Below, piece by piece: positions 1 through 20,000 of a DNA stretch of 20,000 nt. The notes beneath the pieces are model-generated. The model was not told where the DNA came from, searched no databases, and saw nothing but the letters and a program-made list of their open reading frames with translations. The DNA is taken from NCBI GenBank assembly GCA_965178125.1, contig OZ237759.1, positions 917,085 to 937,084 on the forward strand, in the 5' to 3' direction. The first letter of the stretch is position 1, and each line of letters opens with the position of its first letter. The DNA is from Bilabrum cf. latius (Eukaryota). The position numbers and the translations under genes were made by a program.

Positions 1-1797
1 GCCCACTCGCATCGTGCCGCCGTACTGGCAAACCCTTTCCCGAGTCGGTTTGCGGCTGTATCTGCTGCTGGTGGTGGTTCTGCTGCCGCAGCAGGCCCTA
101 GCCCGTCTTCACGCGGAATGTCGTCGTCTCTGCTGTCGAGCTATGAGCGGCTGTCCCAAGCCGTGTCAGTCGACCCAATTCTTGGCCCCATTGACATTGC
201 CCGGGCTCGCCGCGCAACGATGGCAAGCCTTTCATGCTTGCAGTCCTCGGATAACCAGGCCGTCAGCCCGGCAAAAGTGCCAACGGACGCCCAGATCCTG
301 CTTGAGTTTTTAGCCATGGACGTGCCAACTGCATGCGGGTGGACCTGGTGCGAGAGCAGTGACGCTTCTAGTGGATTGGCGCGCCCAACCATACCCTTGG
401 CGAGATGCCCGAAGAGCATTGGCATTTGCCAGCCCACCCGCTTGTCGGACAAACCCATGCTCGATGACTCCTACCACGAGCAAGAGCTGCTCGGGTCAGT
501 GGCAGGTGCACGGCTCTTGGAGATAGAGGGTCGGCTTCGGCGGGTGTCGCTGGCACGCTGCTTGCAGACGAATGCACTGATCAACGGAGCGCCTCTTGCT
601 CCGTCGTTGGCCGCCACAGGGCTGTTGTCCGACTAGGCTGCTGCCGACGTGTTCGGGGGAACTGCCTCTCGTCCAAGCGGGGGTGCATCATGCACGGGGC
701 TGCCACTTGCATCTAAATTTCGAGACCCTGGCTGGCAGTCCATCGTGCAGGTGACTTGGCCCGTCCTCGAGGTGCGAGTACACCAGCACAACGAGTGGGC
801 TGCGGCCCACGAGGCACTGGCAGCCCGCCAGGGCAGCCTGCTCTTGTTTCACGGCACCTCACTGGAGGCCGCCCACTCTGTTATGCAGAATGGGCTGCGG
901 AGCATGAGCGGGACAGCGCACGAGAAAACCGGGGCCGTGCACGGGGACGGCATATACCTGGCTGCACGCCCCCTCATTGCGCTACAGTATGCGAGAGGGC
1001 CGGGCATAGATACAATGGCAAGCATAGAATCAGCATCGACAAGCGATGGCTTGCCTGCGAGGGATTCTACCCGGAAGCGCTGCACTACCTGGGGTCCCCA
1101 TGCATACAGCAGCACAGCTGTTGGTGCTGCACTGGGCGGGGCACCACAAGCAGCAAGTGCACCAAGGGAAGGCTCGTCCCATGGGCCGGCCTCTGGGCGT
1201 GATTCGCTACTACAGAGCCGATGGATGCGCTGCGTATTCGCAGTAGAGGTCGTGCCGGGCACCACGTTGGGATCGGGCGCGCCGCTACACCAAGTGGCCG
1301 GGGAGTCCTCCGCACAGACACAGCTGCCAGGCCTCAAGGCGCCAGACAGGTGTGTACTCGGGACATCAGGTGGTGTGTACGTTCTCAAGGAGCCCCGCCG
1401 TGCGAGAGTCACGCATCTGCTGGTGTTCCACGGCGGCGAGGCGGATGGACCACGGGCCATGACGCACACACAGGTGCGGCAGGTACCGGTAAAATTGCAA
1501 TTTTACCGGTTCGCGGCGACTTAGATAGCAAGCCATGCTGAGCACAAGGATTGTAATGTCGCCACAACCACAGTGGACGTGGTTCAACGCACTAGGGTGC
1601 CAAGAAAGCAGGGCAAGCGGGAGCAAAATGGAGCTCGAAGTGGCAAGCCATCAATGGGTGTTGCAGCCTCAAGCAGACAATACACTGTGGGCCAAGGCAT
1701 AAGTGCCGCTGTGTAGGATCTCGGTATGGACCCTATCAGTGCTGTGGCTATCACAATTGCTATCCTCGCCCTGGCGTTGGTATGGCTTGGTATTTGA
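1..1797 (+). CDS. PARP16-like (PARP6/8/16 clade) mono-ADP-ribosyltransferase with C-terminal tail anchor; 5'-partial; reads through TAG at 634, 1522 and 1714
   Basis: Frame 1 is open from base 1 to TGA 1795-1797 except for three TAGs. Catalytic motifs LFHGTSLEAAHSVMQNGL and HGDGIYLA...ALQYA are present. N-terminal AHSHRAAVLANPFPSRF resembles the PARP16 SYKRDSVLRPFP segment as I recall it. Read-through yields a C-terminal hydrophobic helix (PISAVAITIAILALALVWLGI*), like tail-anchored PARP16. Confidence 0.8.
1485..1510. repeat. Perfect 26-bp palindrome ACCGGTAAAATTGCAATTTTACCGGT
   Basis: The sequence equals its own reverse complement. It lies within a possible 42-nt GT..AG segment (1483-1524). 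Confidence 0.95.
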
Positions 1798-2349
1798 TAC
1801 CAAATTAAATGCATTTCCGCCCACCTGCCACGGCCATAAACTTGCTTATATTGCTATAAGTGTGATTCCTGTGTTTGGTCGTGAAGCACGGCGGGTGAAC
1901 CTAGAGTGCTACCAAAGCCAGATCGGTTGGTTCAACGCCGAACTTATTAAAGTCATGATTCAGATTAAGCGGACATCCAGCATGGCCATGCAAACCGCAT
2001 CCTCGTACGAGTGATCGCCACCTTTGTGACGGGCATTTGCAATATGATATTTTTAGTAAACAATCAGCACGTCACAATGCTATGCACGGTCGATCAGCAC
2101 ATACGGGCATACACACCCCATAGACCAACCGGGGGTTATATACAGTGTGAGATACGGTATCATGACAGAGTTTGGCTTATTGGTTCAGCCGTTTGTGTCG
2201 CGGAATCGCTACGCTGTCCTGATATTGCGTTTGAGATGACCCCGACGTGCTCGTTCAATTTGCTTGCCATCCGTACCGTTGTGCGTAGACAAGCGCTCGT
2301 ACTGCCGATATATTTCATAATGTCTATTGTTTTCCGCAGAGCAAGCACA

Positions 2350-5300
2350 ATGGCTGATCCCTCGAACTAGTTGCGAAAGCAGCGACAAATGGCTGCCATC
2401 GCTGTTGAATCCAAGGATGCCGAAGAACGCAAAGAAGACGCAATGCTCCCTAGCGAACGGCCAGATGATTGGAAAGAAGATGAAAACATGGTGAGATCCT
2501 CAGGCGACTCCCGTAGTTATGTTTGTTTTCTATTTTGTTGCGTGACGGCCACGTTCGTGTTCTTGTGGCCACGTCGAAATCGCAGGCAGAGGAAGACCGG
2601 CTGCTGAAAGAGCGGCTTGAGACTGCGCTTGATGTGCTTCTGGATGCGGGCGCATCTATTCCCCTGCGGACTGCTGCGCTTCGCATACTCAGATCGGAGG
2701 TCAGGTCCTCCACCTCAAGCATGACGGCAGTGCCGAAGCCTTTGAAGTACTTGGCCCCATTTTACGAGCGAATTAAGTCCAGCTTCCTATCAATCGATGG
2801 CCCTCGACTTGGTGAGCACAGCTTCGCGCTAGGCAGCGACGAGGACCCCGTAGCGGCAGCAAAGCAGGCAGCTCTGGTCGTTGATGGCGAGGCTTGGGAG
2901 CCCGGGTCCTCCAAGGCCGAATCGGGGGGTCAGGCTGCATCGGGGACAGGTGCCGATGCCTCTAGTGATGAAAAGAAGGGGTCATCCAAGTCTGGCCCCG
3001 GCAAGAAGGCGCCCAAGGGGGCAGCCTCGGTGCAGGAGGCCCTCAAGGAGCCCATTGAGGGCGTCACCGAGACGCAGTTCCGTAGGTCCTTCGCTGACCT
3101 GCTGTCCGTCCTGGCCATGGTGGGTGGGCGGGAAAACAGAGAGTGTCTGCGGTTCAAGATGCTCGGTCACCCCGCGGACGTGGGTCACTGGGGCCACGAG
3201 CACACCCGTGCGCTGGCCGGGGAGATCGCGCATGAGTACCAGGACAGGCTGCAGAAAGCCGAGCAGCAGATGGAGGACGGGGGGGGTGAAGTACCCTCGG
3301 ACATCGATGTGTCCAGCCTGGTGGACGCCAGCGACCTGCTGTCCCTCGCAGCCCGCATCGTGCCGTACAACATGGCGCACAATGCCGAGGCTGAGGCTGT
3401 GGACCTGCTCCTCGAGACGGGGCGGCTCAAGACCCTGCCCTCTTCCGGTTTCATCGACAAGCGGAACGTTGCTAGGGTGTGTTTGTACCTAGTGCGGTGC
3501 GCTGACTATACCGGTGACGAGGAGGAGCGCATCGAGATCCTCTCGGTGGCATATGCCCTTTACCTGCAGTAGGCCAGGCACGCAGATGCCATGCGAGTCG
3601 CCCTGCGCATGGCCGACAAGGGCCGGGTGCTGCGCGCATTCCGGGCGTGCCGGGACAAGGGCGTTCGTCTTCAACTCGGCTTTCTGCTCGGCCAGCACGG
3701 CTTCCGTGCCGTCGGCCACGGCGCGGACGAGGACGAGGACGACGTGGAGGAGCCGGACATCGGTGTCATCGGCGAGGGCGACGATGAGCTGGGCGGCAAG
3801 GGCTCTGCGCAAGCCAGGATGTCTGACCAAGGAGAACCCCCGGCAGCGGTGCCGCTGACCATCTCGCTGAGCAAGACGGAGAGCCTGACCTTCGGTGCAG
3901 GCGTGCTGGACGACGAGCAGGCAGGCGAGCTGGAGGACGACGTGAAGGACGCTATCGGGAACTGCATGCGGCACAAGCACTACCGGGCGCTGGCACAAGA
4001 GATGGGCGTCGACGAGCCAAAGAGCTCGGAGCAGGTGTACAAGACAAAACTTACGGATGAGTCGCGCCTTGCCACCCGAGGCAGGGAGGAACAGGTGCGC
4101 CTGGACAGCGCCCGCGGCAATCTGGCTGCTTCCTACGTGAGCGGGTTCGTGAATCTTTCTCTGGGTAAGGACAAGGTCATCACGCAGAAGGACGAGCACG
4201 GGCGCGAGTGGTGGCAGAGACAGAAGGGCAACGGCATGTCTGCAGCTGCCGCTGGGCACGCGCTGCTGCACCTGTGGGACTACGAGGCCTTGAACGAGGC
4301 CGAGCGGTTCACCAATGCCACCGATGCAGAGGTGCGAGCTGGAGGCGTGCTGGGCTACGGCATCATCCCTTGCTCCATCGCGAGCGAGGATGACGCCAGC
4401 ATCGGGATGCTCGATGAGTACATCGCTGGCGAAGCAGCGGCTGGGAAGAGCCACGCCGAACGATGCGCTGCCCTGCAAGCTCTCGGTCTCGCGTATGCTG
4501 GCACCGGCAGGATGGATGTCGCAGAGATGCTTATCCCATACGTAGAAGACCTTGGCCCCGACATGAAGAACAAGCTAGATTGCGATCTGGTCTGCAACGC
4601 GGCCTTCTCCCTGGGCATGGTGATGGCAGGCACCGCTGACGAGGACGCCACCATTGCACTGCAATCCATCCTGGTAGAGCCCCCGGAGCCGCTGCTGGAG
4701 CACCCTCTCCGGAGGCACCTGGCTGTTGCGCTCGGGTTGGTGTACATGCAGCGAGGAGTAGCGGCCGAGGACGCGCTGGAGATCATGGCTGCCGCTGGAG
4801 AGGAGTCCCCGCTCGGACGCGAGGCTGCACTGCTTCTCCGAGCCTGTGCATTTGCGGGCACCGGCGATGTCCTCCAGGTGCAGCGCATGCTGCATGCTTG
4901 CGCCGAGCACCCCATGAAGGATCGGCTTGCAGCCGTGGCGAAGATGAAGAAGGAGCGCAAGGAGAACCAGGCCGAGCAACAGGCTAGGCAAGCGCAGCGG
5001 GGCGCAAGTTCAGGGGCTGGTGCCGCTGCAGGGGGTGCCGCCGGTGGCGGGCAGGATGACGACGATGAGGAGATGCAGCGTGAGGAGGAGAAGGCTGCAG
5101 ACCCAGCGAAGTATGCATTCTAGACGGTGGCTGCCCTTTGCCTGGGTGTCATTACGATGGGGGAGGGGCTCGGCACTCAGATGCTTGGACGGGTGGTGGA
5201 TCACCTGCTTCAGTACGGCGATCCTGCGGTCAGGAGGGGCGTCCCTCTTGCTCTCGCCATGGCGTATGCTTCCAATGCGGACTACGGCGTGATCGACACG

Positions 5301-6035
5301 CTCTCCAAGCTGTCCCATGACGGCGATGCAGGCACGGCACGGAATGCAGTCCTCGCCATGGGCATCATTGGAGCAGGCACCAACAACAGCAGGCTGGCCG
5401 GCATGCTGCGGCAATTGTCTGTCTTCAACAAGCAAGATGGAGAGTCGCTTTTCATCGTCCGGCTGGCGCAGGGGCTGCTGGCCATGGGACAGGGCCTCGT
5501 CACCGTGAACCCATTCCACAGCGACGGCATGCTGCTCAAGACGCCGGCAGCTGGTGCGCTGCTAGCTGTGGCCCTTTGCGGGCTGGATCTGGACCGTACC
5601 GTGTTGGCGCAGCACCACCTGCAGCTGTTCAACATTGTCCCGGCCATCTCTCCCAGGATGGTGGTGACCCTGGACGCCAGAGATGCCGACGAGATGGTGC
5701 GCGTGGATGTGCGTGTTGGTACTGCGGTGGAGACTGTGGGGCAGGCGGGCCGCCCCAAGACAATCACTGGGTTCCAGACCCACCAGACCCCAGTGCTCCT
5801 GGCTGCCAAGGACCGCGCCGAGATCGCCCCCACAGACCAGTGGGTGCCCCTCACCTCAACGCTGGAAGGTGTGGTGCTGCTGAGGCGGGTAGAGGACGCG
5901 TCCATGGATGACGCGGTGAGGGCAGCTGGCGTGGGTGAAGTGGATGAGGACCAGCGGAAGGCGGTGGAGAACAAGGGTAGCCCCAAGCCGAAGCGGAAGG
6001 CTAGTGTGGCTACTGGTACCGATCCGTACGACTGA
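2350..6035 (+). CDS. RPN1: 26S proteasome regulatory subunit RPN1/PSMD2, join(2350..2490,2586..6035), about 1196 aa; TAG read as sense at 3570 and 5121 (and 2368 if the first ATG is used; alternative start 2389)
   Basis: ORFs 2523-3572, 3591-5123 and 5127-6035 share one frame and are separated only by TAG. RPN1 motifs occur throughout: SMTAVPKPLKYL, WGHEHTRALAGEIA, PYNMAHNAEAEAVDLLLE, GAGTNNSRLAGMLRQL, VRVGTAVETVGQAGRPKTITGFQTHQTPVLL. Ends TGA 6033-6035. Confidence 0.95.
2491..2585 (+). other. Spliceosomal intron (95 nt, phase 0) in RPN1
   Basis: ATG|GTGAGA donor, T-rich interior and CGCAG| acceptor. Splicing joins ...EDENM to AEEDRLLKERLE, matching the ELSEEDKQL-type N-terminal motif of RPN1. 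Confidence 0.85.
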
Positions 6036-6430
6036 GTCTATGTGATGACTTGCTGCTATGCCACATAGATCTAGCCCTACATCCAAATATTATTTTTTTT
6101 TATCGCGGGTATCGGTTGTTAATGGATCAATGCAGCGTTTCACGTGGAACTTACGTAGATGGAGAGAGGGTAGGCCGAGGCCGAAAAAGAATCCGGATCT
6201 ACGAAGATCTTAAAGTTAAATAGCCTGAGGCCCGAGAACAGCCCGCGTTTTGCATGCCACTAGGTCCAGAATATCTGGTTAAGGTCATATGCATGGAGAG
6301 CTAAGAACAGCAGTATGACAAAAGTACAAACATCCACATCAGGATTATGGGCGGCTGCTGCAGACTAAAATCCTTATGTCGACTTGGACAATCAGATTAT
6401 ATCGCATTTCAGATTTGAATCTCCATTCAT

Positions 6431-6640
6431 GTCCCTATCCATGGCCCTCTCGTCCGATCCACCAAACACCACACTGGCTGGCCCCATCCATAGCCTCTTC
6501 CACGTCCCAATCCATGGCCCTCTCGTCCGATCCACCAAACACCACACTGGCTGGCCCCATCCATAGCCTCTTCCACGTCCCCATCCATGCCCCTCTCGTC
6601 CGATCCACCAAACACCACACTGGCTGGCCCCATCCATAGC
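6431..6640. repeat. 73-bp telomere-adjacent tandem repeat, about 2.9 copies
   Basis: TCCATG(G/C)CCCTCTCGTCCGATCCACCAAACACCACACTGGCTGGCCCCATCCATAGC recurs at 6438, 6511 and 6584 (period 73). The third copy is truncated just before the telomeric tract. Confidence 0.95.
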
Positions 6641-6643
6641 TAC

Positions 6644-7186
6644 GGGTTAGGGTTAGGGTTAGGGTTAGGGTTAGGGTTAGGGTTAGGGTTAGGGTTAGGG
6701 TTAGGGTTAGGGTTAGGGTTAGGGTTAGGGTTAGGGTTAGGGTTAGGGTTAGGGTTAGGGTTAGGGTTAGGGTTAGGGTTAGGGTTAGGGTTAGGGTTAG
6801 GGTTAGGGTTAGGGTTAGGGTTAGGGTTAGGGTTAGGGTTAGGGTTAGGGTTAGGGTTAGGGTTAGGGTTAGGGTTAGGGTTAGGGTTAGGGTTAGGGTT
6901 AGGGTTAGGGTTAGGGTTAGGGTTAGGGTTAGGGTTAGGGTTAGGGTTAGGGTTAGGGTTAGGGTTAGGGTTAGGGTTAGGGTTAGGGTTAGGGTTAGGG
7001 TTAGGGTTAGGGTTAGGGTTAGGGTTAGGGTTAGGGTTAGGGTTAGGGTTAGGGTTAGGGTTAGGGTTAGGGTTAGGGTTAGGGTTAGGGTTAGGGTTAG
7101 GGTTAGGGTTAGGGTTAGGGTTAGGGTTAGGGTTAGGGTTAGGGTTAGGGTTAGGGTTAGGGTTAGGGTTAGGGTTAGGGTTAGGG
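6644..7186 (+). repeat. Telomeric repeat tract (TTAGGG)90, internal in this window
   Basis: Uninterrupted TTAGGG from 6647 to 7186 (540 bp). The G-rich strand is +, the orientation of a right-hand chromosome end. Confidence 0.99.
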
Positions 7187-7246
7187 TATCTAATATAAAG
7201 TCAGGGACAGGGTCGGGGAAAAAATATTTTCATCTTCAATATTTGT

Positions 7247-8477
7247 CGAAAAACGACGTGCTACGATCTCGGTAACTACAGGTGATATGAAGACCGTTCA
7301 AACTGCATCGGGACGGCCTGGGGGCACAACATGGGCCAAATGTTCCCCAGGTTCCGTTCTGGCCGCGCGGCGCCGATATGGGTGTATGAAGAATTTCACA
7401 CCGAAAAACGACGTGCTACGATCTCGGCAACTACAGGTGATATGAAGACCGTTCAAACTGCATCGGGACGGCCTGGGGGCACAACATGGGCCAAATGTTC
7501 CCCAGGTTCCGTTCTGGCCGCGCGGCGCCGATATGGGTGTATGAAGAATTTCACACCGAAAAACGACGTGCTACGATCTCGGCAACTACAGGTGATATGA
7601 AGACCGTTCAAACTGCATCGGGACGGCCTGGGGGCACAACATGGGCCAAATGTTCCCCAGGTTCCGTTCTGGCCGCGCGGCGCCGATATGGGTGTATGAA
7701 GAATTTCACACCGAAAAACGACGTGCTACGATCTCGGCAACTACAGGTGATATGAAGACCGTTCAAACTGCATCGGGACGGCCTGGGGGCACAACATGGG
7801 CCAAATGTTCCCCAGGTTCCGTTCTGGCCGCGCGGCGCCGATATGGGTGTATGAAGAATTTCACACCGAAAAACGACGTGCTACGATCTCGGCAACTACA
7901 GGTGATATGAAGACCGTTCAAACTGCATCGGGACGGCCTGGGGGCACAACATGGGCCAAATGTTCCCCAGGTTCCGTTCTGGCCGCGCGGCGCCGATATG
8001 GGTGTATGAAGAATTTCACACCGAAAAACGACGTGCTACGATCTCGGCAACTACAGGTGATATGAAGACCGTTCAAACTGCATCGGGACGGCCTGGGGGC
8101 ACAACATGGGCCAAATGTTCCCCAGGTTCCGTTCTGGCCGCGCGGCGCCGATATGGGTGTATGAAGAATTTCACACCGAAAAACGACGTGCTACGATCTC
8201 GGCAACTACAGGTGATATGAAGACCGTTCAAACTGCATCGGGACGGCCTGGGGGCACAACATGGGCCAAATGTTCCCCAGGTTCCGTTCTGGCCGCGCGG
8301 CGCCGATATGGGTGTATGAAGAATTTCACACCGAAAAACGACGTGCTACGATCTCGGCAACTACAGGTGATATGAAGACCGTTCAAACTGCATCGGGACG
8401 GCCTGGGAGCACAACATGGGCCAAATGTTCCCCAGGTTCCGTTCTGGCCGCGCGGCGCCGATATGGGTGTATGAAGA
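7247..8477. repeat. 155-bp tandem satellite, about 7.9 near-identical copies
   Basis: The unit starts CGAAAAACGACGTGCTACGATCTCGG at 7247, 7402, ... 8332. Identical 89-aa ORFs recur every 155 bp. I noticed single substitutions only in the first copy (GGTAACT) and the last (CCTGGGAGC). Confidence 0.98.
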
Positions 8478-8729
8478 TTTGCATGTTTATTCAATATGCA
8501 TGGTTTATCTGTCAATTGTAGAATGGGTATGGTGTACATGACAGTTGTATTTGCTGTGTGGATTGCTTTGATCTAAGGTATTAACTGGTTGACACGTCAA
8601 GACTCAACAGAATGCCTCCCGGCTCCTAATGCTGCGTCCGAATGGGTCAATGGCAGACACTTTGGCAAACTCCTCTCACAAGCTGGCCCAGCTGCCACTG
8701 ACCTCAATTGCCGTCCCCCTGCCTGCCTC

Positions 8730-10268
8730 TCACTCGTCACCGAAAGCTGCTAGGAGCGCTTCCACAGCGTCGACGTCTGCCGCATTGAGATCTCCTTTCG
8801 CCGTCTTCTCGAGGGCCGTCATCAGGTTTGCGAACATTTCCAACTCGCGGTCCCTCTCTTCAATTGTTGCCTCCACGTCCTCGCGCATGTCTTTGAGAGT
8901 CCGGCTGACGCCCATCGCGCTGTCATCGCAGGCAGCAAGGATGCGGTCCACCAGGTGCCGCTGCTAGTCGGTGAAGGCGGTGTCCTCCATTCCACTGTTG
9001 TTGTCAGAGTCGTCTTGCTGGTTCTGGCCGTCGTTTTCTTCTTCCTCAACCAGCTGCTCCTCATCCTCCTCGTCCTGCTGCTCAAACCCCATTGGAGCGT
9101 CGTCCTCGTCCTGCTCTCCAGCTGCGTCTGCGCGGTACCGACCACCGATGTCCTCTTCATCTTCGTCAGAGTCCTGACGAGGCAGTGATGCTGCTGCTCC
9201 ACTCCTTGCGCCACTTGCTCCCCTTTTCTCCTGTTCAACGGCGCGGCGTGCTCCTCTGCCATTGCCTGGTTGGACGACTGCCGGTCGCTCGGGCTGCCTC
9301 TATGCCCGCGGCTCAGCCTCAGCCGCCTTCTTGCCCTTTGACTCTGCCGGTTGTGCACCCTTGCCCTTCGCCTTGCCCTTCGACTTGCCCTTCGACTTGC
9401 CCTTCGACTTGCCCGCGGCCTTGGTCCTGGCCTTTGCCTTGGCCTTTGCCTTGGCCTTTCTCTCGGCCTCCGCCTCTCGCTTGGCTCTGAGAAGATCGTT
9501 GTTCAGTCGCTCGGTCGATGAGTCGCTGGACTCTGAGCCGTCTGTATCCGGCTCACCCCGTGCTTTCCGGGCCGTGTAGGCCCTCTGGCCCTTCACATTG
9601 TTGTCGGGGTTGTCCTCGTCCTCATCGTCGTCGTCGTCCATGGCACTCCGTTTGCCCTTCCGAGCACGGGATGCCCCACTCGGCGAGGTAGCAGCGGCTC
9701 CCGAAGAGCCACCTTGATCTCCTGCTGCAGCCCCGGCAGAGTCCTTGACTGCCATGTCGAACACCTCTATGAATACAGCCTCCATGCCTCCGCGTGCACG
9801 TACAGAGGCCGTCCCAGCTCCATTATCGCAGATGAACTTGAGCACGTTCTTGAAGCGCCTGCGCAAGCCGTCTAAGCCTGCCTTGAAGAATGGGTTTGTG
9901 GTGGTGGAGTAGCCACACTCGCGCAGAGCCGTGAGAAGCTGCTTCATCTTCCGAAAGCCTGGCCAGTCGGAGCTGCTGGCTGACGCGTCTGGGCACAGGC
10001 GGCTGTTCAGCGCTGTGAGCACGCCAAATGGCACCTCAAACTCATCCAGCGCCAGCATGGCATCCACGCAGGCCCTGATGCCCTCCCTCTTGGTCCCTTC
10101 GTAGTGCTCCGAAGATCCGCAGAGCAGCCCGCAATCCTGGTGGAGGCCCACGAGGGAGATAAGCAGGATCTGCTTGGCCGCGGAAGTGTCGACGCCTGAA
10201 GCCAGGGAGGCCACGACAGGGCGAGATGCCTTGGTGTGCTTGGCGCTGTAGCTCTTTGCGGCGGCCAT
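8730..10268 (-). CDS. Hypothetical protein, about 512 aa (TAG read as sense at 9300-9302 and 8964-8966): N-terminal globular region, Lys/Ala/Gly-rich basic repeats, acidic tracts, C-terminal helical segment
   Basis: ORFs 9300-10415 and 8730-8951 share a frame. The sequence between them is open apart from the two TAGs and encodes a D/E/Q-rich segment. The likely start is ATG 10268 (MAAAKSYSAK) and the end is TGA 8732-8730. Confidence 0.75.
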
Positions 10269-10506
10269 AGTACTCTGCGGTGCCAGGGGAACACGGGTGA
10301 GGTCACGAACAGGTGCTTGGATGCGACAGGGAACACGGGCACGAGACCCAGGGTTACTCCTGGACAAGCTCGAGGGCAAAAAAAAAAAAAAAGGCACCCA
10401 CATAACCCCGCGCACTCGGTCTCAGACCTGGGACCCATGATGTTGGGTCGATCCCCCAGTCGTGGGGGGAACGGACCCCAGCCCAGAAAAAAAATTAAAA
10501 AAAGAT

Positions 10507-10586
10507 CGCCCCAACGGGAATCGAACCTCGGGGGTAGGCCGGGGTGCGATTACCAACCGTACGCAATACCACTACACCACCACAGC
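10507..10586 (-). ncRNA. tRNA-like / Pol III type-2 element (degenerate tRNA, possible GGT anticodon loop) followed by oligo-T
   Basis: The minus strand reads GCTGTGG-TGGTGTAGTGGTA...TTGGTAA...GAGGTTCGATTCCCG-TTGGGGCG. A box TGGTGTAGTGG (10579-10569), B box GGTTCGATTCC (10527-10517), T7 run just downstream. The stems pair poorly, so it is probably not a canonical tRNA. Confidence 0.55.
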
Positions 10587-11160
10587 AACCCACGCGAAAC
10601 CGAAAAAAAATTACAGATTCGCATCAAAAGTGCACGCAACTTGCACTTGTCACGCCGAAACCTACCCGTTCACCCAACGAGCAGCGCGAAATCAGAAACA
10701 CTCATATTGCGCTCCTTGTATTCAATTGCAGAGGCGCATACTTGGCATATAGCTACTATAGCATATTGTGCATACAACCCTAAAGCAAACGTGAGTCAAA
10801 TCGATGGGGTATGCGTGGGGATTGCCTTGCGCAATGCGCTTGCTGCAACGTGGTTCAGACGTTTGCCTCAATTGCGCGACGGCAAGCACTCGTTGGAACT
10901 AATCTCGCGCATATTATCAAATAATATAACATACTGCAAACAATTGCGCGGCGATATATAGGCTGCGCGCCCAATGCTCACTTTGCTTGCGGTAGGTGTG
11001 CTGCGACAACATTTGTGGTGGCCCGGATCAGGTTGCGGAACCTGATGCGCGGCACCGCCGTGACGAGTGCGCCACCAGGGAACAACGCATCGTACCATCA
11101 TACTAATCACATCCCAAGTATATTATATATCCTTGTGGCATCTCTGTCCGCAGTCTGGTC

Positions 11161-14100
11161 ATGGCGCAGTCCACGTACGACGCCACCAAGCATGTGAAGG
11201 CTCTCGATTACCTCCGGGCCTTCCTGGACCGCCGCGCGAAGGGCTACGCCCAGAACCCGCATCGCGTGCGCATCGGAGTCCCAGGGCCACTTCAACCAGG
11301 AGGTGCCGCCCTGCCTGGCCCGCCGGCCGGCGAGGCGCAGGCCCAGATCCCGGCCCAGGTGGGGCCAGCGCCAGGCGGTCATGCCGCCGGGGGGGGCGAT
11401 GCGGCAGGCCTGCCGGCCCCCGTCCCAGCCATCGGCGAGCATGCTCCGGAGCCCCAGCACCAGCAGCAAGAGGGCGCCCAACAACCACCACCGGGTGCAG
11501 CTCTTGCTGCTGGCCAGCAGGCGATGCCCGCCGCCCCGCCCCAGCACCCCGCTGGTCCGGGTGCCAACCTGCCGGTCCCAGGAGGCCTGCAGCCCGAGCC
11601 GCCAGCTGGCGATGCCGACGCCTTCCTCCCGATCCCGGAGCCCCAGCAGGAGCCTGCAGGTGGGCCAGCCGGCGTCGGTCCGGCCCCTCCAGCAGCCGAG
11701 CAGCAGCCAGCTGCCCAGGCTGCCCAGCACCAACTCGTCCCTGGGCCCGTGCCTCTCGCCGAGGTGCCCGTCCTGGCCGGGGTCGGCGCAGGGGAGGACG
11801 CGATGGAGGACGACGAGCCCCCAGAAGCGGTCCAGGCCATCTTCCTCGGGCGCCAAGCCGCCCACGCGGCCACCCAGGCAGCTCGGCAGGCCATGGTCTG
11901 GGATGCTCAGGGCCAGCAACCGCTCTTCGGGGCAGAGGGAGGAGCGCCCGAGCTGCCCATCCCCGGAGTCGTGTTCGCTGCCGGTGCAGAGGCAGCCGGC
12001 GCCCAAGGCGGTGGCGCAGGCCCAGACGCCGGAGGGGAGGTCGGTGCGCCACCCGTGCAGGCGTGGAACCTGGTCGTCGGCGACCCTGGGGGAGCGCATG
12101 GAGAGGAGGCCCTGGCCGTCAACCTCCCGCCCGAGTACCGGTTCGGCATGCACGAGGCGACAGACGACCTCGCGCAGCACCCCATGCTGGCCTACCACAT
12201 ATGGGAGGTGGACGACGAGGCGGTGCAGGCCCTGCAGGGCCTGCTGACCTGCGTTGGCAGGCAGGAGCTGCCTCCCGAGGTGTGGAGGGCGCTCGCACCT
12301 CCAGTGATGGAGACGGTGACCATGCAAGGCATGCGGCGCTGGTGGGCGTACCAGAGGCGCGCCGTTGTCGTCGTGGACAGCCTCCTGCATGCCGAGACTG
12401 ATGCTGCCGGCGTGGAGCAGCGCGCGCAGAGGCGCGGCCGCTTTCTCGTGCAGCTCGTTGGCTGGACTGACATCACCAAGATGCTGGAGAGCGAAGACCT
12501 GAACGAGGAAGGGGCTGCCTTCATTCGGAGCAAGCTGGCTTCGGTGGCGGTCAGCTTCTGGCCGTCTCCGATGCTGGCGGAGCCCGGGCTGCACAGCCAC
12601 AAGCTCTCTCCGCTCCGCACGGAGTGGGATCACTACATCGAGTACAACCGCGTGGACGAGACGGTCTTTGACGCGGTCGGGCTCTCCGAGCAGCCTCCAG
12701 CGTTCATGTACGAGGACGAGGACGAGGACGAGATGGAGGAGGGGCCGGCGGCGCAGCCGGCTGGGGCGGAGGAGCATGCAGAGGGCGACGAAGATGCCGG
12801 GTATGAGGCTGGGGAAGGCGAGTGGGGTAGGGAAGGCCAGTGGGACTCGGACGGAGACCAAGGTGGCGACGAGGAAGCGGATGGTGGAGATCCTGCCGCG
12901 GAGGCTTTCGGAGCTGCGGATGCCGAGCTGGAAGGCGAGCCTGAAGAGGAGCAGGAGGCCGCCCCGGATGTGCTGCGGAACCCACCAGACGGCATGGCGG
13001 CCCCCGTGGCGGTCCGCTCTGAGCTCTCCGATGTCGACGCCATGGAGGTGGTCGGGATCCTATCCGGCGCCGGAGCCTCCCAGGAGGTGCAGACCAGCCC
13101 GTTCATGCTGGCGCTTGGGGGGCCGGTGTCACGGCTCCTGCTGGACGAGCCGCTGGACCAAGCCTACGGCCTCATCGACGTGCTGATTGGAGCCGACTCG
13201 GCGACGCAGGATGGGGTCCTCTGCGGGCGCAGGGGTCTGCAGAGGGACGGGGGGCAGATCAGGGTGCAGTCGGCCACGCAGCAGCACCAGCGCACCGAGG
13301 TGGACACGAGCGGCTCATCCAGGCCCCGGCTCGGCTACAGCATCGTCTTCAACCGGCACATCCCCACGTAGGAGCGGGACAATCCCGGCACGCCGAGGAG
13401 TCACGGCGCGTACTACTCACCCCGCATCGACGTCGCGTACCTTGGACCGATGGGGATCCAGAACATGGGCGTGGATTCGGAGCCGCTGCGGCTGCACCGC
13501 ATCCATCACGCTCTCCCTGCACCAGCAGGGGACCACGTGACCGTCCAATCCCTGACATCGGACGTTCGAAGTGCAGCTCGTCGCTTCCACCAGAGCAGCG
13601 AGGAGGTTGGGGTGCTAGAGGAAGCTGAAGCGATCCTGGAGGGAAGCACCGGCACAGTGCGAGGCAATGCCAGGGCCGTGAAATCCGCACGTGCCACGCT
13701 CCGCAAGTACCTCACGATGATGCCCAAACAGCGCGGGGTCGGATCTGGCGACGTCTCGGTCTCTGTCCTCCTGGCGGGGGCGGCTGAGGTGCGAGTCGTG
13801 CTACCGGAGGGCGGTGTGGCTCGGGTGTTTGGCGTTGCTCACGCAGGGTCTGAGGAAGAGCAGGCCTCCTTGCGCACACTCGCGAGGCGCTGGAACATCC
13901 GGCGACTGGAGGGAATGCGCCTCGTTGGAACGCCGTTCGACCAGGCCGTGCAGTCGCTCCTGATTGGCATCGCAGGTGCCATCAACTACGTGAGAGAGAA
14001 GGAGGGGTACCGCGGGCCCGAGTTCATGGTGCAGTCGACCCCGAGGACTGCCACGACGGCGCAGGGACTCTCCGCATCGTACGCGATTGTAGCAACCGAC

Positions 14101-17100
14101 TCGCCCGTCGGTGTCTCTCGCGGAAGCACCCACACCGAGACTTTGAGTCCTGGAGACCGTCACATGGGCGTGCGTGGGACTGCTGAGCCTGATGGCGGGC
14201 ATCGCATCAGGCCCGGGTACTTCCTGTGCGAAGTGCTCCGGGTTCTGAGCGAGGACGCGGCCCTGCATCCCACCCAGGTCAGCCATCTGCCCCACAGGCT
14301 GAGATATCCTGACGGACTGAAGATCCAAGGGGTCCTGGCGTGCTCGATCTACCGAATCCTGGTCGTCGGGGGCCAGAACCAGGCGGCGGTTGCTGTGATG
14401 CGATCCCTGATGCTGCGACAGGCTCCGGCCGCTGGTGAGCCTGAGGAGGACCCTCCGGACCACGGCGGGCACCCTGTAGTGTTCGTCGACCCTCTTGCCG
14501 CCGGGAGGGACGCCATCCGCATGGCGACGGAGCTCGGGCAACATCGACCAGAGATCCAGTGCCAGGACCCCGTGTTGCTCTCCATGGACCTGGGCTTCAT
14601 GGCAGGTGGCGGCGACATGCACGCTGCGTTTCCGAGCGTGCTGGGCCTGCGTCATGCCATGGCACTTGCGGGTGATGCCGTGGCCGACATCTCCTCCGTA
14701 CCGGGCTTCGGACAGGTGGGGAGCTAGTTCGTCTTCCCAATGCAAGTGGATGAAGAGAACGTGAACTGCCTGCTCATGAGCCCATCTCTGGGCAGTGTGC
14801 AGTTCAGGGCTCGTGCCAGAGGCGATACGCAAGCTGCCATGACTAAGCATGACTTTCAGCACGTGGCTGAGCTGGTATCGCAGGCCACCCGCGAGCGGGA
14901 CGACGAGTTTGTTCGTAAGCTCTTGCCCGCGATGCTGAGCGTATCTCACGGGGTGCAGATGTACGTCGAGCAGGCGTTCCGCTCCACGAGGCTCAGCGGC
15001 GACAGTCACCAACGGCTTGGGTCTCGGCTGTATGGTGAGCTGGAGCGATGCAGGCAGCAGGTTCCAAAGGTGGGGCGGGCTGCTGCGGCCACCATGGCAA
15101 GGGTTGCGCACGACGAGGCCACCGAGATCGCGTGTCGCAGGTTGCAGGCTATAGGTGACGCTCGAGCATCGCTTCGCGTCGAATTCAGCATGGCAGGGCC
15201 CGGTCTTCTGATGGGACTAGCAATGGCGCTGGGACTTGAGGACGGACACGCCAGTCTCGTGGATGCCCTGGCGGAAGGAACGTCGACAGTTCGAGCGCCC
15301 TTCTTTGACACAGTTGCTGCCATGGTGCAGCGGGAGGTGGCGCATGCCGTCACGCGGGACTTGGAGGAGGCGGTCCGAGGGGCCATGGCTACGGCGGCCA
15401 GTATCGAGATAAAGGCTATGGCGGCTGAGCAGGTGTCGGACGGTTTAGCTGTTCAGCAGGCAGTCGCAGGGGAGCTGCGCATGCTTGCGCTGGATGTGTC
15501 GCAGATGGTGGCCCCCACCCAGACTGGGCAAGCCATGACCCGGTCCATCATGGAGTCCGTCCTTCCGCGTCCCGAGGCCAGACTGCGGCAGGCCATCTGG
15601 CATGTGGCGGATGGCACCATTGCGGACCGACGGCGAACGGTGGAGAAGGATCCACGCAACTGGAACGGCCAGTGCCGCGTAGCCCAGGCAACTCTGGCTA
15701 TGGTGCTTCAGGTTGTGACCAGGGGCGGGGTGAGGGAGATCACGGATCCGGAGGCCCGCTCTCCAGAGGTGCTTCCGAAGCTGCTGCACGGCGTAGCGTC
15801 ACTCATCGTGGTGGGTGTGCAGTCGGCCTCGCTCATTGCCTGCACGGGGTAGCGACCACTCGCGGTAACACGGGCTGACAGCCGGCGCCACGTTGTCGGA
15901 TTCGCCGCTGGGACTGAGTCTCCCAAGGACTGCGCCTTGCTGGATCTGAGGTCGTTCCTGCAGAGCGGCAGTGACGATCCCTGCGTGGAGCTCGGCCGGG
16001 TCATTGGTCGAATGCTGCACCCGGCCTTGGTGTCTGCCGTGCTGATCAACGCACCAGGCCCTCTACTGACTGCTGTAGTGCGAATCAGCCCAGGGAGGCT
16101 TGCGTCCGAGGTGGTCATGCAGCTCGAGAATACCGTGGCTCTGACGCAGAGCATTGAGCAGCAGGCCAAAGCGGCCACCTTACTGGGAGCTCCAGCCTCG
16201 CTGATGCACGAGACCATGAGAAACCTGGGAGTAACGCTCGAGGACATGGTCTCCGCGCTCCAGAAGGCGTACGAGGACGTTCCCTTGGCGGCAATTGGTG
16301 CATTTGCGGCCATGGTGAGAGGAGGCAAGAACGAGAAGTTTCCGCATGGGACGGCGATTCCGGTGAACACCCCTGGTGTGCCATTTCCGCTAGCGCTGTG
16401 TCTTACCGGCTAGGATGACGACGGACGGTTCAGGCTAGGGTCGCTCCCGCTGGGCGGAGTGCCGGATACCATAAGGGTGGATGGGACCCAGTCTGCCTCC
16501 CCACTGCAGCTGATGCTTGCTGGCAGGGCGGCCACCGTGCTACACGACAACCTGCTCCAGATTGCTATCGGCACGGTCCGTCGGCAGGGCCGTTTGGTCA
16601 AGGAAGAGGAACTCGACTTGGTTCGCAGGGGCACGCACGCAGGGGAGCGCTTGACGCTGGCGCTGCCGGGTTCGACGCAAGAGGCTGCCCGTGTCGACAG
16701 CCTCACCCGAGCTGCAGTCTTGGCAGCCATGCGGCGGATCTAGAAGTTCAGATATATGAGCACTTCCGTCTACGACAGGACCAGGCGACTGCTTCGTGCA
16801 CGGTAGGTGGAGCCTTGGGATGCGCTTGACGTGGAGGATATGCGGAGGCCCTGGCGGGACTAGTTCCGCTTGCCATTGGAGGAAGGTACCATCGGTGAGA
16901 GTACTGCAGCGGTACTTAGGCGTGGAAGCTTCGAGACCAGACGGGCTAGCCTTGCGCTGATGGGCATCGCCACGGTGGCGGGTCGGGCTTGCCAGGAGGA
17001 GGCATAGCAGCCCGTAGTGCGAGCAACACGTTTGGTAGTAGGGTGGTTGAGGTCCGATGTCTCTGACGCAATGGTCCTGGACGATGGAAGCGAACAGCGT

Positions 17101-18147
17101 CAAGCTGCCGTCAACGCTGCTGCAGGGGCCGAGATGCTCCTCACGGAACTGTGTGGTGTCGAGACCGTGAAGCTCTTGGCCAAGGTGCAAGCGCTCATGG
17201 ACCGATCCGAGGCTGCACATCTGCGCCACAGAGACGAAATTATGCATGGAGATCTGCCGGAGACGAACAGCCGGCAAGAGCGCGTAGGTTTTCGTATCGG
17301 CTGTGCAATCGCGGCAAGTAGAGGGCAAGAGGCTTTGGAGAAGCTGAGGAGACTCTCATCGCTGGTCCGGATGGCTCGACGGGTGGTGAAGACAGCTCGC
17401 AATGCTTTGCACGGCGGTGCAAGTTGTCACGCAGTGCTTGCCATGGTTCGTGCGTCCATTGGACGGGTCCGAGGCCTACGAAATGCCGTGGAGCGAGCGC
17501 GTGAGTTGGCTGGAGCTGCCGAGGTCGAAGGGGAAGGAGCAGCGGAGCGGCTGGGGAGACTGGGTGCTCTCGGATGGCAGGCCATCCAAGCGGAGCGAGT
17601 TCGTCTGGTGGTGCAAGCAGCTAGAGGAGCCGCTCGCTTGTACAGGCGTAGTCGGACATATCCAGTTGGATCCGCCAGATAGAAGGTCTGCCTGCGAGGT
17701 ACGCTGCTTCTGACGGGGTTTGTCAGATCCTAGCGACATCCCTTTGCAGTAGAGCCCAGTCCTTTGGCACGGACGCTTGCTGGGTGGAGCGTGGTGCAGG
17801 AGTGGAAGCATGTGTTGCGCCAGCACTCTTTGTTGATGGGCCTGGGTGTGGGACTTGGCGATGAAGACGAGCGGGTGCAGTAGGTGTGCCAGACGGTGTT
17901 TCGTGCCAACGACGATCCTATGGAGGTAGAATTGGCCGAGGGGCCCGGCAACTGGAGTCCTGCCGAGATCAGTGCATTTAAAGCAGCGGATGTCTGGGGA
18001 GAGGACCAAGGGAAGATGGCCCTGTCCATTGGAAAGGTCTAGGGCTTGCTCGCATCATGGCGGAGAACAGCGAAGCATCTTCAAGAGACCGCTCAAGCTG
18101 ATGGCCGCGGAAAGGGCAGGATGCAGCTCTAGCACATGTTCGGTTGA
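11161..18147 (+). CDS. Giant hypothetical protein, 2328 aa, with 13 in-frame TAG codons; Pro/Gln/Ala/Gly-rich N-terminus, acidic linker, long C-terminal body of unrecognised family
   Basis: ORFs starting 11161, 13450, 14740, 15937, 16459 and 17017 are all in frame 1. Manual translation of the gaps and the 3' extension shows only TAG (13369, 14725, 15850, 16411, 16741, 16804, 16861, 17005, 17680, 17731, 17881, 18040, 18130) until TGA 18145-18147. Confidence 0.85.
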
Positions 18148-18264
18148 TCCTGTCAGGTGTCTAGACGTGTTGAAGTAGATACTGTTCTTGTAGATCCAAA
18201 TCTATACAACGAGAAAAAAAAATCATATCAATAAGCATGCTCGAAATGTCAAGAAATCCAGAAG

Positions 18265-20000
18265 GACCCACACCACGCCCATCCTACAACCGCGATGAGA
18301 CATCCACACACCGGAATGAGACCTGCCACATTGAGGTCACATCTGGTGGATTAGAATGGTCCGTGTCGGGCATCCTTAGCTCGCAGATGCGCCATTGCTG
18401 CCGCAGGATAGGAATGAAGGAGCTTGGCCCCGAAAACGTGGTGGATTTTTTTCTCCCATTTCAGTAAACCAAGTACGCTAAATGATTAAATACAATAATA
18501 CAAGCTCACGAATTAGCTAATCGGATTTGAAATTCCCCCACAAAGGGGAAAGGTTAGGAATAGGGTTTATGTCATAGACCGGTGAGATTGAGACTTGGTT
18601 GAAAGATTTGAAACTCCGAGTTATTCCAGGGAACATCGTACATAGGTGCATAGACATCATGTGGAAAGTGTAAGGCATTGGAAATGTTTCCCGGCTGAGA
18701 AAACATGGATCAAAGATTCGGGTTAGGGCTCGTATTTGTGTGGCGTTACACTTGGTAGGGAACAAGCAATGTTGTGTCGTCATGATACACTTGGGACAAT
18801 GTCAAGTACCATCAAGCACAAGTGTATGCGATTTGAAGACATTGCATCCATAAGTTGCCGCGATATTGAAGATCAAAGTTCTGAAGGTTAGGGTTAGGGT
18901 TAGGGTTTTCCCTGAGGGGCGTGCATTAGCTGTGAATGAGATTTTTTTGATTTCTAGGGTTCATTTGCACTTTGAATCATCATGTATTATGTGTGTGAAG
19001 TTTGGAGATTGGCTGACATACAGTTATTGAGCACTTGAGCAATACAAGTAGTTGCCTTTGCTCATCTGGTCGGCGCCACGCCCACAGTGACTGGGCGACT
19101 GGCGACCCACACCACGCCCATCCTACAACCGCGATGAGACATCCACACACCGGAATGAGACCTGCCACATTGAGGTCACATCTGGTGGATTAGAATGGTC
19201 CGTGTCGGGCATCCTTAGCTCGCAGATGCGCCATTGCTGCCGCAGGATAGGAATGAAGGAGCTTGGCCCCGAAAACGTGGTGGATTTTTTTCTCCCATTT
19301 CAGTAAACCAAGTACGCTAAATGATTAAATACAATAATACAAGCTCACGAATTAGCTAATCGGATTTGAAATTCCCCCACAAAGGGGAAAGGTTAGGAAT
19401 AGGGTTTATGTCATAGACCGGTGAGATTGAGACTTGGTTGAAAGATTTGAAACTCCGAGTTATTCCAGGGAACATCGTACATAGGTGCATAGACATCATG
19501 TGGAAAGTGTAAGGCATTGGAAATGTTTCCCGGCTGAGAAAACATGGATCAAAGATTCGGGTTAGGGCTCGTATTTGTGTGGCGTTACACTTGGTAGGGA
19601 ACAAGCAATGTTGTGTCGTCATGATACACTTGGGACAATGTCAAGTACCATCAAGCACAAGTGTATGCGATTTGAAGACATTGCATCCATAAGTTGCCGC
19701 GATATTGAAGATCAAAGTTCTGAAGGTTAGGGTTAGGGTTAGGGTTTTCCCTGAGGGGCGTGCATTAGCTGTGAATGAGATTTTTTTGATTTCTAGGGTT
19801 CATTTGCACTTTGAATCATCATGTATTATGTGTGTGAAGTTTGGAGATTGGCTGACATACAGTTATTGAGCACTTGAGCAATACAAGTAGTTGCCTTTGC
19901 TCATCTGGTCGGCGCCACGCCCACAGTGACTGGGCGACTGGCGACCCACACCACGCCCATCCTACAACCGCGATGAGACATCCACACACCGGAATGAGAC
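18265..20000. repeat. 839-bp tandem repeat (2 full copies plus the start of a third, running off the window) containing short telomere-like motifs
   Basis: GACCCACACCACGCCCATCC starts at 18265, 19104 and 19943. Identical ORFs occur at 18517 and 19356. Each unit has (TTAGGG)3 (18888-18905 and 19727-19744). Confidence 0.97.

Follow-up and report, generated by a model that had tools for sequence, protein, structure and literature searches.

A probable UAG-only glutamine code with UGA terminators in GC-rich, stramenopile-like nuclear DNA

In nuclear genetic codes UAA and UAG are nearly always reassigned jointly, and the few exceptions reveal that the two codons are mechanistically separable. The accessible text of Panek et al. 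2017 (PMC5304391) describes the first nuclear codes in which UAG and UAA are decoupled, those of a rhizarian, in which UAG is leucine, and of Iotanema, in which UAG is glutamine (Gln) and makes up ~8% of Gln codons, with UAA as the primary terminator. Further UAG-only changes are given in the accessible part of a second paper (PMC11687900): Scotinosphaera (serine), Protocruzia tuzeti, Hartmannula sinica and Trochilia petrani (Gln), and phyllopharyngeans that use leucine. That text reasons that UAG can change alone, since UAA lies outside the reach of a CUA anticodon, and states that its phyllopharyngeans, Hartmannula and Trochilia included, have fixed UAA as the preferred stop and use UGA least; UAA is the preferred stop both in Iotanema and in the phyllopharyngean ciliates with a UAG-only Gln code (PMC5304391, PMC11687900). 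Lineages in which UAA and UAG both encode Gln include many ciliates, Ulvophyceae, hexamitin diplomonads, Streblomastix and Amoeboaphelidium (PMC11687900). Here we analyse a 20-kb stretch of DNA (positions 917,085 to 937,084 of contig OZ237759.1; the whole stretch is called the window below), in whose four genes UAG almost certainly encodes Gln, UAA is absent from the reading frames and UGA ends every gene. The kind of code is already known, and the lineage appears new. NCBI translation table 15 reads TAG as Gln.

Under the standard code the window splits into many medium-sized open reading frames (ORFs), and reading TAG as an amino acid gives four long frames (Table 1). We have little doubt that UAG is translated as Gln. 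The gene for RPN1, the 26S proteasome subunit PSMD2, was placed in an alignment that also contains two close relatives and 45 distant homologs, the latter 37-46% identical to it. Its TAG at 5121-5123 (Q867) falls inside a conserved helical-repeat block of the protein and belongs to the mere 35 columns that are invariant; all 45 distant homologs have Gln there, as does human PSMD2. At its TAG at 3570-3572 (Q350) the column is Gln in 32 of the 45 distant homologs, the others having H (three), V (three), N (two), R (two), S (one), A (one) and F (one). The TAG in RPN1 exon 1 is not alignable with homologs.

Codon-position composition was followed along the same frames. Guanine at first positions (G1, 0.38-0.57) and a higher G+C at first than at second positions (GC1 > GC2) are kept in every inter-TAG segment of the window genes. 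In the largest of them, a 2,328-codon orphan gene, the periodicity spans five TAGs within the final ~155 codons, one of which lies five codons before the TGA; past each TGA, G1 drops to 0.25-0.26 and coding periodicity is lost. That periodicity continues unbroken through the late TAGs argues against UAG terminating near gene ends.

Of the 4,661 codons in the raw ORFs, 20 are TAG, none is TAA, 4 are TGA (all terminal), 52 are CAA and 166 are CAG. The refined gene models (PARP-like, 118-1797; RPN1, 2350-2490 plus 2586-6035; an unnamed minus-strand gene, 10268-8730; and the orphan gene, 11161-18147) comprise 4,595 sense codons, among them 21 TAG, 52 CAA and 165 CAG, with neither TAA nor internal TGA; the 21st TAG, missing from the raw ORFs, is codon 7 of RPN1 exon 1. 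UAG is 21 of the 238 Gln codons (8.8%), and the terminal codon is TGA in four of four genes and TAA in none. Stop triplets in the five non-coding frames of these genes number, per frame, 4-10 for TAA, 15-35 for TAG and 26-87 for TGA, which is the most frequent of the three; zero internal TGA, against 26-87 in the other frames, indicates that the reading frames are real. Because TAA had counted as a stop in delimiting the raw ORFs, a possible ascertainment bias was checked by relisting ORFs under translation table 6, in which UAA and UAG are both Gln and UGA is the sole stop. Only the largest ORF lengthens, by 119 codons (10804-11160). This extension is intergenic between two divergent genes, contains three TAA and one TAG, and has a random-looking translation that is not protein-like. 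No coding TAA is concealed by the ORF delimitation. An earlier note, made from the sequence alone, had counted 20-21 TAG and no in-frame TAA in about 4,600 codons and had described CAA as in regular use beside CAG; both statements are confirmed here (CAA:CAG = 52:165), and its caution that no window gene ends in TAA was correct.

Protein fragments from close relatives bear on how these codons vary. The orphan protein (P0001) has as its sole relatives six fragments, P0125-P0130, which are 97-99% identical to it and come from a 99%-identical strain; five are placed on a contig listed at 12,766 nt, and no contig is given for P0130. TAG was a stop in the gene calls behind these fragments, and five of the six terminate directly before window TAG codons 1189, 1751, 1861, 2174 and 2294 of P0001 (window positions 14725, 16411, 16741, 17680 and 18040), and one of these five, P0126, has Gln at a sixth window TAG, codon 1564 of P0001 (15850). 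Six of the 13 TAG sites of the orphan gene are covered in this way, and seven are not; five stops to a standard caller and one Gln among the six sites give a picture of synonymous CAG/UAG variation. For RPN1, the close relatives P0005 (99% identity) and P0006 (85% by tblastn) have Gln at both exon-2 TAG sites. The relatives' residue is Gln at all three window TAG sites spanned by their proteins, and, when sites at which those proteins end are included, three of eight read Gln in the 99%-identical relative.

P0005 and P0006 end just before Q1034 and Q886, respectively, and P0006 starts right after Q249, all three of which are CAG in the window. The simplest reading of these ends would be a standard caller together with UAG at Gln sites that differ from strain to strain. 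Fragment starts were dropped as a guide to hidden stops in the relatives, because the caller skips the first start codon after a stop. As a separate observation, P0128 and P0126 exit and re-enter the window frame at about codons 1418-1451 of the orphan gene (window 15411-15511), and in this ~100-nt stretch several substitutions of the relative keep another frame open for ~25 codons; local hypervariability and indel errors in one of the assemblies are among the possible causes. P0001 and the RPN1 protein (P0002) were also scanned against bacterial and archaeal genome contigs, among which stray contigs of the organism might lie, and no relative was found. Standard-code callers mis-annotate this lineage, and its proteins stand broken into pieces in public collections, which carry genes of the organism or its close relatives cut at in-frame TAG, with GTG as a start.

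The deficit of TAA exceeds plain GC bias under most null models, although not under the most extreme, and is real by most measures in a sample of 21 codons from four genes. Across the 4,595 codons, ~5-6.6 TAA are expected and none is observed. Scaling by CAA and CAG gives 21/165 x 52 = 6.6 expected TAA (Poisson P ~0.001), and the binomial probability of no TAA given 21 TAG comes to 0.0032 when based on CAA/CAG, 0.013 on all NAA/NAG pairs and 0.047 on AAA/AAG. The TAG sites are located where A-ending codons are comparatively common, and with the local composition within 150 codons of each TAG the probability becomes 0.0034 (NAA fraction) or 0.0001 (CAA fraction). In the non-coding frames of the window genes TAA:TAG is 34:127, so composition does not forbid the TAA triplet.

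The source is stramenopile-like and, as judged from the RPN1 sequence, possibly of bicosoecid kinship. Among the 120 best listed RPN1 matches, every one that a source database assigns to a named organism is a stramenopile, with Cafeteria roenbergensis at the top (43%). In a quick maximum-likelihood tree, the window RPN1, taken together with its two close relatives, has Cafeteria and one other sequence as its sister group, with a Shimodaira-Hasegawa approximate likelihood ratio test (SH-aLRT) value of 100, in a single-gene tree of stramenopiles only (no outside outgroup), with a long branch and a flagged shared amino-acid composition bias. The 95-nt GT..AG intron in RPN1 indicates that the source is a eukaryote and that at least some of its genes have spliceosomal introns. 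A literature search, with most subscription journals outside its coverage, returned no nuclear code change reported for stramenopiles or bicosoecids, and stramenopiles are not mentioned in the accessible portions of PMC5304391 and PMC11687900.

The best-supported reading of the window, to which we assign a probability of about 0.65, is a UAG-only Gln code in which UAA is not a sense codon. The earlier note had proposed UAG as Gln without UAA, with UAA a stop or avoided and possibly an independent origin. The assignment of UAG to Gln is upheld by the invariant RPN1 Gln column and by the Gln/UAG polymorphism with a near-identical relative. The lack of in-frame UAA is also upheld, as it goes further than composition predicts; no terminal UAA is seen in the four genes. 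An independent origin is supported, the lineage being stramenopile-like and apart from Iotanema, the rhizarian and the ciliates. For the fuller claim we see about even odds: that this is the first stramenopile nuclear code change, an independent UAG-only Gln origin in a GC-rich bicosoecid relative, with UGA as the working stop, unlike every described UAG-only lineage, and with fast CAG/UAG interchange between near-identical strains.

Several points weigh against a UAG-only code. The sample is four genes only. Deep alignment covers only 2 of the 21 TAG codons; two of the four genes are without homologs beyond the species, and the 13 TAG sites of the orphan gene are without any deep alignment. 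The absence of TAA from the four gene ends, with TGA at all of them, is exactly what table 6, with UGA alone as a stop, would predict, and TGA at four of four ends is expected also under a UAG-only code in a GC-rich genome. With the most A-poor codon pairs as the null, the probability of no TAA given 21 TAG rises to 0.14 (CTA/CTG) and 0.20 (TTA/TTG). If the caller behind P0005 and P0006 read TAG as Gln, the ends of these proteins would be TAA and UAA would be Gln in the relatives; this is unlikely, because two double substitutions would be needed in a 99%-identical gene and because the implied TAA density, ~2 per 640 codons, contrasts with none in 4,595 here. The mechanism is wholly inferred: a tRNA gene scan of the window returned no genes, and the gene for eRF1 is not among the window genes. 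The eRF1 N-domain features named in PMC5304391 are GTS, TASNIKS, YxCxxxF, E55, S70 and L69.

In our best explanation, the window comes from the nuclear genome of a GC-rich relative of stramenopiles whose ribosomes decode UAG as Gln. UGA is the working terminator, and UAA would not be a sense codon, being most likely a rarely used stop or effectively unassigned. A change of a tRNA-Gln anticodon from CUG to CUA could provide a tRNA that pairs with UAG and not with UAA, and eRF1 may no longer recognise UAG efficiently, with UGA and probably UAA still recognised. Once UAG was readable, C-to-T changes at CAG codons would become synonymous, which would explain both the share of UAG among Gln codons (21 of 238) and the differences between UAG and a Gln codon at the same sites among close relatives.

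The main rival is ordinary table 6, in which UAA would be a Gln codon kept scarce by GC-biased usage or by a scarce cognate tRNA, and we consider it unlikely. Coordinated changes of UAA and UAG are far commoner (at least 13 independent cases in the accessible text of PMC5304391), and TGA ends four of four genes here; at Gln positions, in contrast, in-frame UAA is found in 0 of 4,595 codons, and the sole TAA-bearing extension, at 10804-11160, is intergenic. The window genes are rich in G+C at third codon positions (GC3, 0.62-0.75), yet CAA is 24% of CAA plus CAG, often 30-50% near TAG, so that the probability of no TAA is 0.003 globally and 0.0001 locally. That probability is 0.14-0.20 if TAA behaves as TTA or CTA; TAA is nonetheless present in the other frames, in the 34:127 ratio to TAG given above. 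None of seven C-terminal breaks in the relatives' proteins falls on a window CAA, which is a low-power test and also speaks against table 6.

An ambiguous or context-dependent code, with UAG as Gln inside genes and as a terminator at some gene ends, is very unlikely. Condylostoma and Blastocrithidia have context-dependent stop codons. The true C-terminus of the orphan gene is uncheckable against homologs, which leaves room for such a code, and positive evidence for it is absent from the window: TAG ends none of the window genes, periodicity runs through the five late TAGs of the orphan gene and is lost only after TGA, and RPN1 reaches its TGA ~45 codons past the conserved C-terminal domain. 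Still less probable is that UAG is a sense codon for another amino acid (leucine, serine, glutamate or tyrosine, as in other reassigned lineages); the deep alignment reaches only 2 of the 21 TAGs, and 13 of 45 homologs have a residue other than Gln at one of them, but Gln stands at TAG867 in 45 of 45 and at TAG350 in 32 of 45, and the relatives have Gln at three of three spanned sites. Hardly credible is the idea that the TAGs are untranslated (sequencing or assembly errors, pseudogene lesions or unrecognised introns), for although RPN1 has one real intron and the relative's contig is frameshifted in one ~100-nt stretch of the orphan gene, random lesions or introns cannot give 21 TAG with no TGA and no TAA when TGA is the commonest stop triplet in other frames, an independent assembly shares five of the TAG sites, and one TAG sits on an invariant Gln within the RPN1 helical-repeat block.

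The coordinates of the genes and their TAG codons are given in Table 1. G+C is 59% across the window and 60-70% within genes. RPN1 is identified by Pfam (RPN1_RPN2_N, 4.7e-80; RPN1_C, 1e-23) and by PSMD2 in PDB (2e-167). Its splice junction joins ...DENM directly to AEEDRLLKERLE, in agreement with the homolog consensus SEEDxxLKExLE, and the joined coding sequence is a multiple of three that starts with ATG, ends with TGA and has neither TGA nor TAA as an internal codon. The PARP-like frame is open from window base 1, and the gene may begin upstream of the window; the match to the PARP catalytic domain is short (residues 259-332 of P0003), and a hydrophobic C-terminal stretch of the protein resembles a membrane anchor. 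For the minus-strand gene, the ATG at 10268 was chosen as the start within the ORF at 8730-10415.

Table 1. Genes, exons and in-frame TAG codons of the window (positions are those of the window; Q, Gln)
Feature	Position	Strand	Details
Raw ORF (TAG=Q)	1-1797	+	
Raw ORF (TAG=Q)	2523-6035	+	
Raw ORF (TAG=Q)	8730-10415	-	
Raw ORF (TAG=Q)	11161-18147	+	
PARP-like gene	118..1797	+	559 codons + TGA; ORF with TAG=Q; Pfam PARP catalytic domain, E 5e-8
PARP-like gene, in-frame TAG	634-636, 1522-1524, 1714-1716	+	
RPN1 exon 1	2350..2490	+	47 codons; ATG at 2350; donor GTGAGA at 2491
RPN1 exon 1, in-frame TAG	2368-2370	+	Codon 7
RPN1 intron	2491..2585	+	95 nt, GT..AG, read from sequence
RPN1 (26S proteasome subunit PSMD2) exon 2	2586..6035	+	Ends in TGA
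RPN1 exon 2, in-frame TAG	3570-3572, 5121-5123	+	Q350 and Q867 of P0002
Acidic, lysine-rich protein gene, no family match	8730..10268	-	512 codons + TGA; ORF with TAG=Q
Acidic, lysine-rich protein gene, in-frame TAG	9300-9302, 8964-8966	-	
Orphan gene	11161..18147	+	2,328 codons + TGA; 13 in-frame TAG
Orphan gene, TAG first bases	13369, 14725, 15850, 16411, 16741, 16804, 16861, 17005, 17680, 17731, 17881, 18040, 18130	+	

Pfam searches gave no match for the minus-strand gene or for the orphan protein. No homologs of the 2,328-residue orphan protein were found among proteins of similar length, and a profile-free HMMER search with the final 1,200 residues, run against 1.84 billion representative sequences, returned only the six fragments, from the same or a near-identical organism. 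TAG is spread unevenly along this gene, with none in the first 736 codons and five in the last ~155; the first 736 codons are proline-, alanine- and glycine-rich at the start, with GC1 up to 0.90. An Rfam scan of the window (E up to 0.1) gave no family above threshold; a CRISPR-DR8 match scored 25.8 bits, below the gathering score of 39, and was taken as chance.

The window also carries several tandem repeats. A perfect telomere-type array, (GGGTTA)x90.7, lies mid-window at 6644-7187, preceded by a 73-bp repeat present 2.9 times (6431-6640) and followed by a 155-bp satellite present 7.9 times at 99% identity (7247-8477). The G-rich strand of the array runs 5' to 3' on the + strand, like a right chromosome end; either the telomeric tract is truly interstitial or the assembly has joined a chromosome end to some other sequence. 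Downstream of the orphan gene, an 839-bp tandem repeat with a G+C of ~46% occupies 18265-20000; over the 300 nt compared, a reference copy is 100% identical. ORFs listed under table 6 in this repeat region (18148-20000) are non-coding in appearance.

If the UAG-only reading is true, a new major eukaryotic group joins the list of code changes, in a setting unlike the described UAG-only cases in that it is GC-rich and has UGA instead of UAA as the working stop. It would then offer a test of GC pressure as a separate route to decoupling, given a rare UAA and a tRNA-Gln with a CUG anticodon one mutation from CUA. Cafeteria probably uses the standard code. The window resembles this bicosoecid, C. 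roenbergensis, in its GC-rich genes and in alanine-rich insertions in RPN1; the Cafeteria RPN1 records, in contrast, are full-length, at 1,133 and 1,223 amino acids (ncbi, uniref and nr; the 1,133-residue record also in eukprot), and the relationship is distant, with 43-45% identity in RPN1 and a long branch.

Among the closest described codes is that of Iotanema spirale, in which UAG alone is Gln, in-frame UAA is absent and UAG accounts for ~8% of Gln codons, against 8.8% here. It differs in that UAA is the primary stop there, whereas UGA ends four of four genes and UAA none here, and in that Iotanema is a fornicate (Metamonada), whereas the source here is GC-rich and stramenopile-like; the evidence in Iotanema comes from hundreds of transcripts, and here from four genes. 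Lineages that use table 6 also have UAG as Gln, and UGA terminates every gene seen here as it would there, but UAA is Gln as well in those lineages, whereas here no in-frame UAA is found against the ~5-6.6 expected. Hartmannula sinica, Trochilia petrani and Protocruzia tuzeti share with the window the change of UAG to Gln without UAA, and the same CUA-anticodon logic may apply to both. The phyllopharyngeans among them, Hartmannula and Trochilia, prefer UAA and use UGA least, whereas the window, with its GC-rich genes and its source on another supergroup branch, has only UGA at the ends of its genes.

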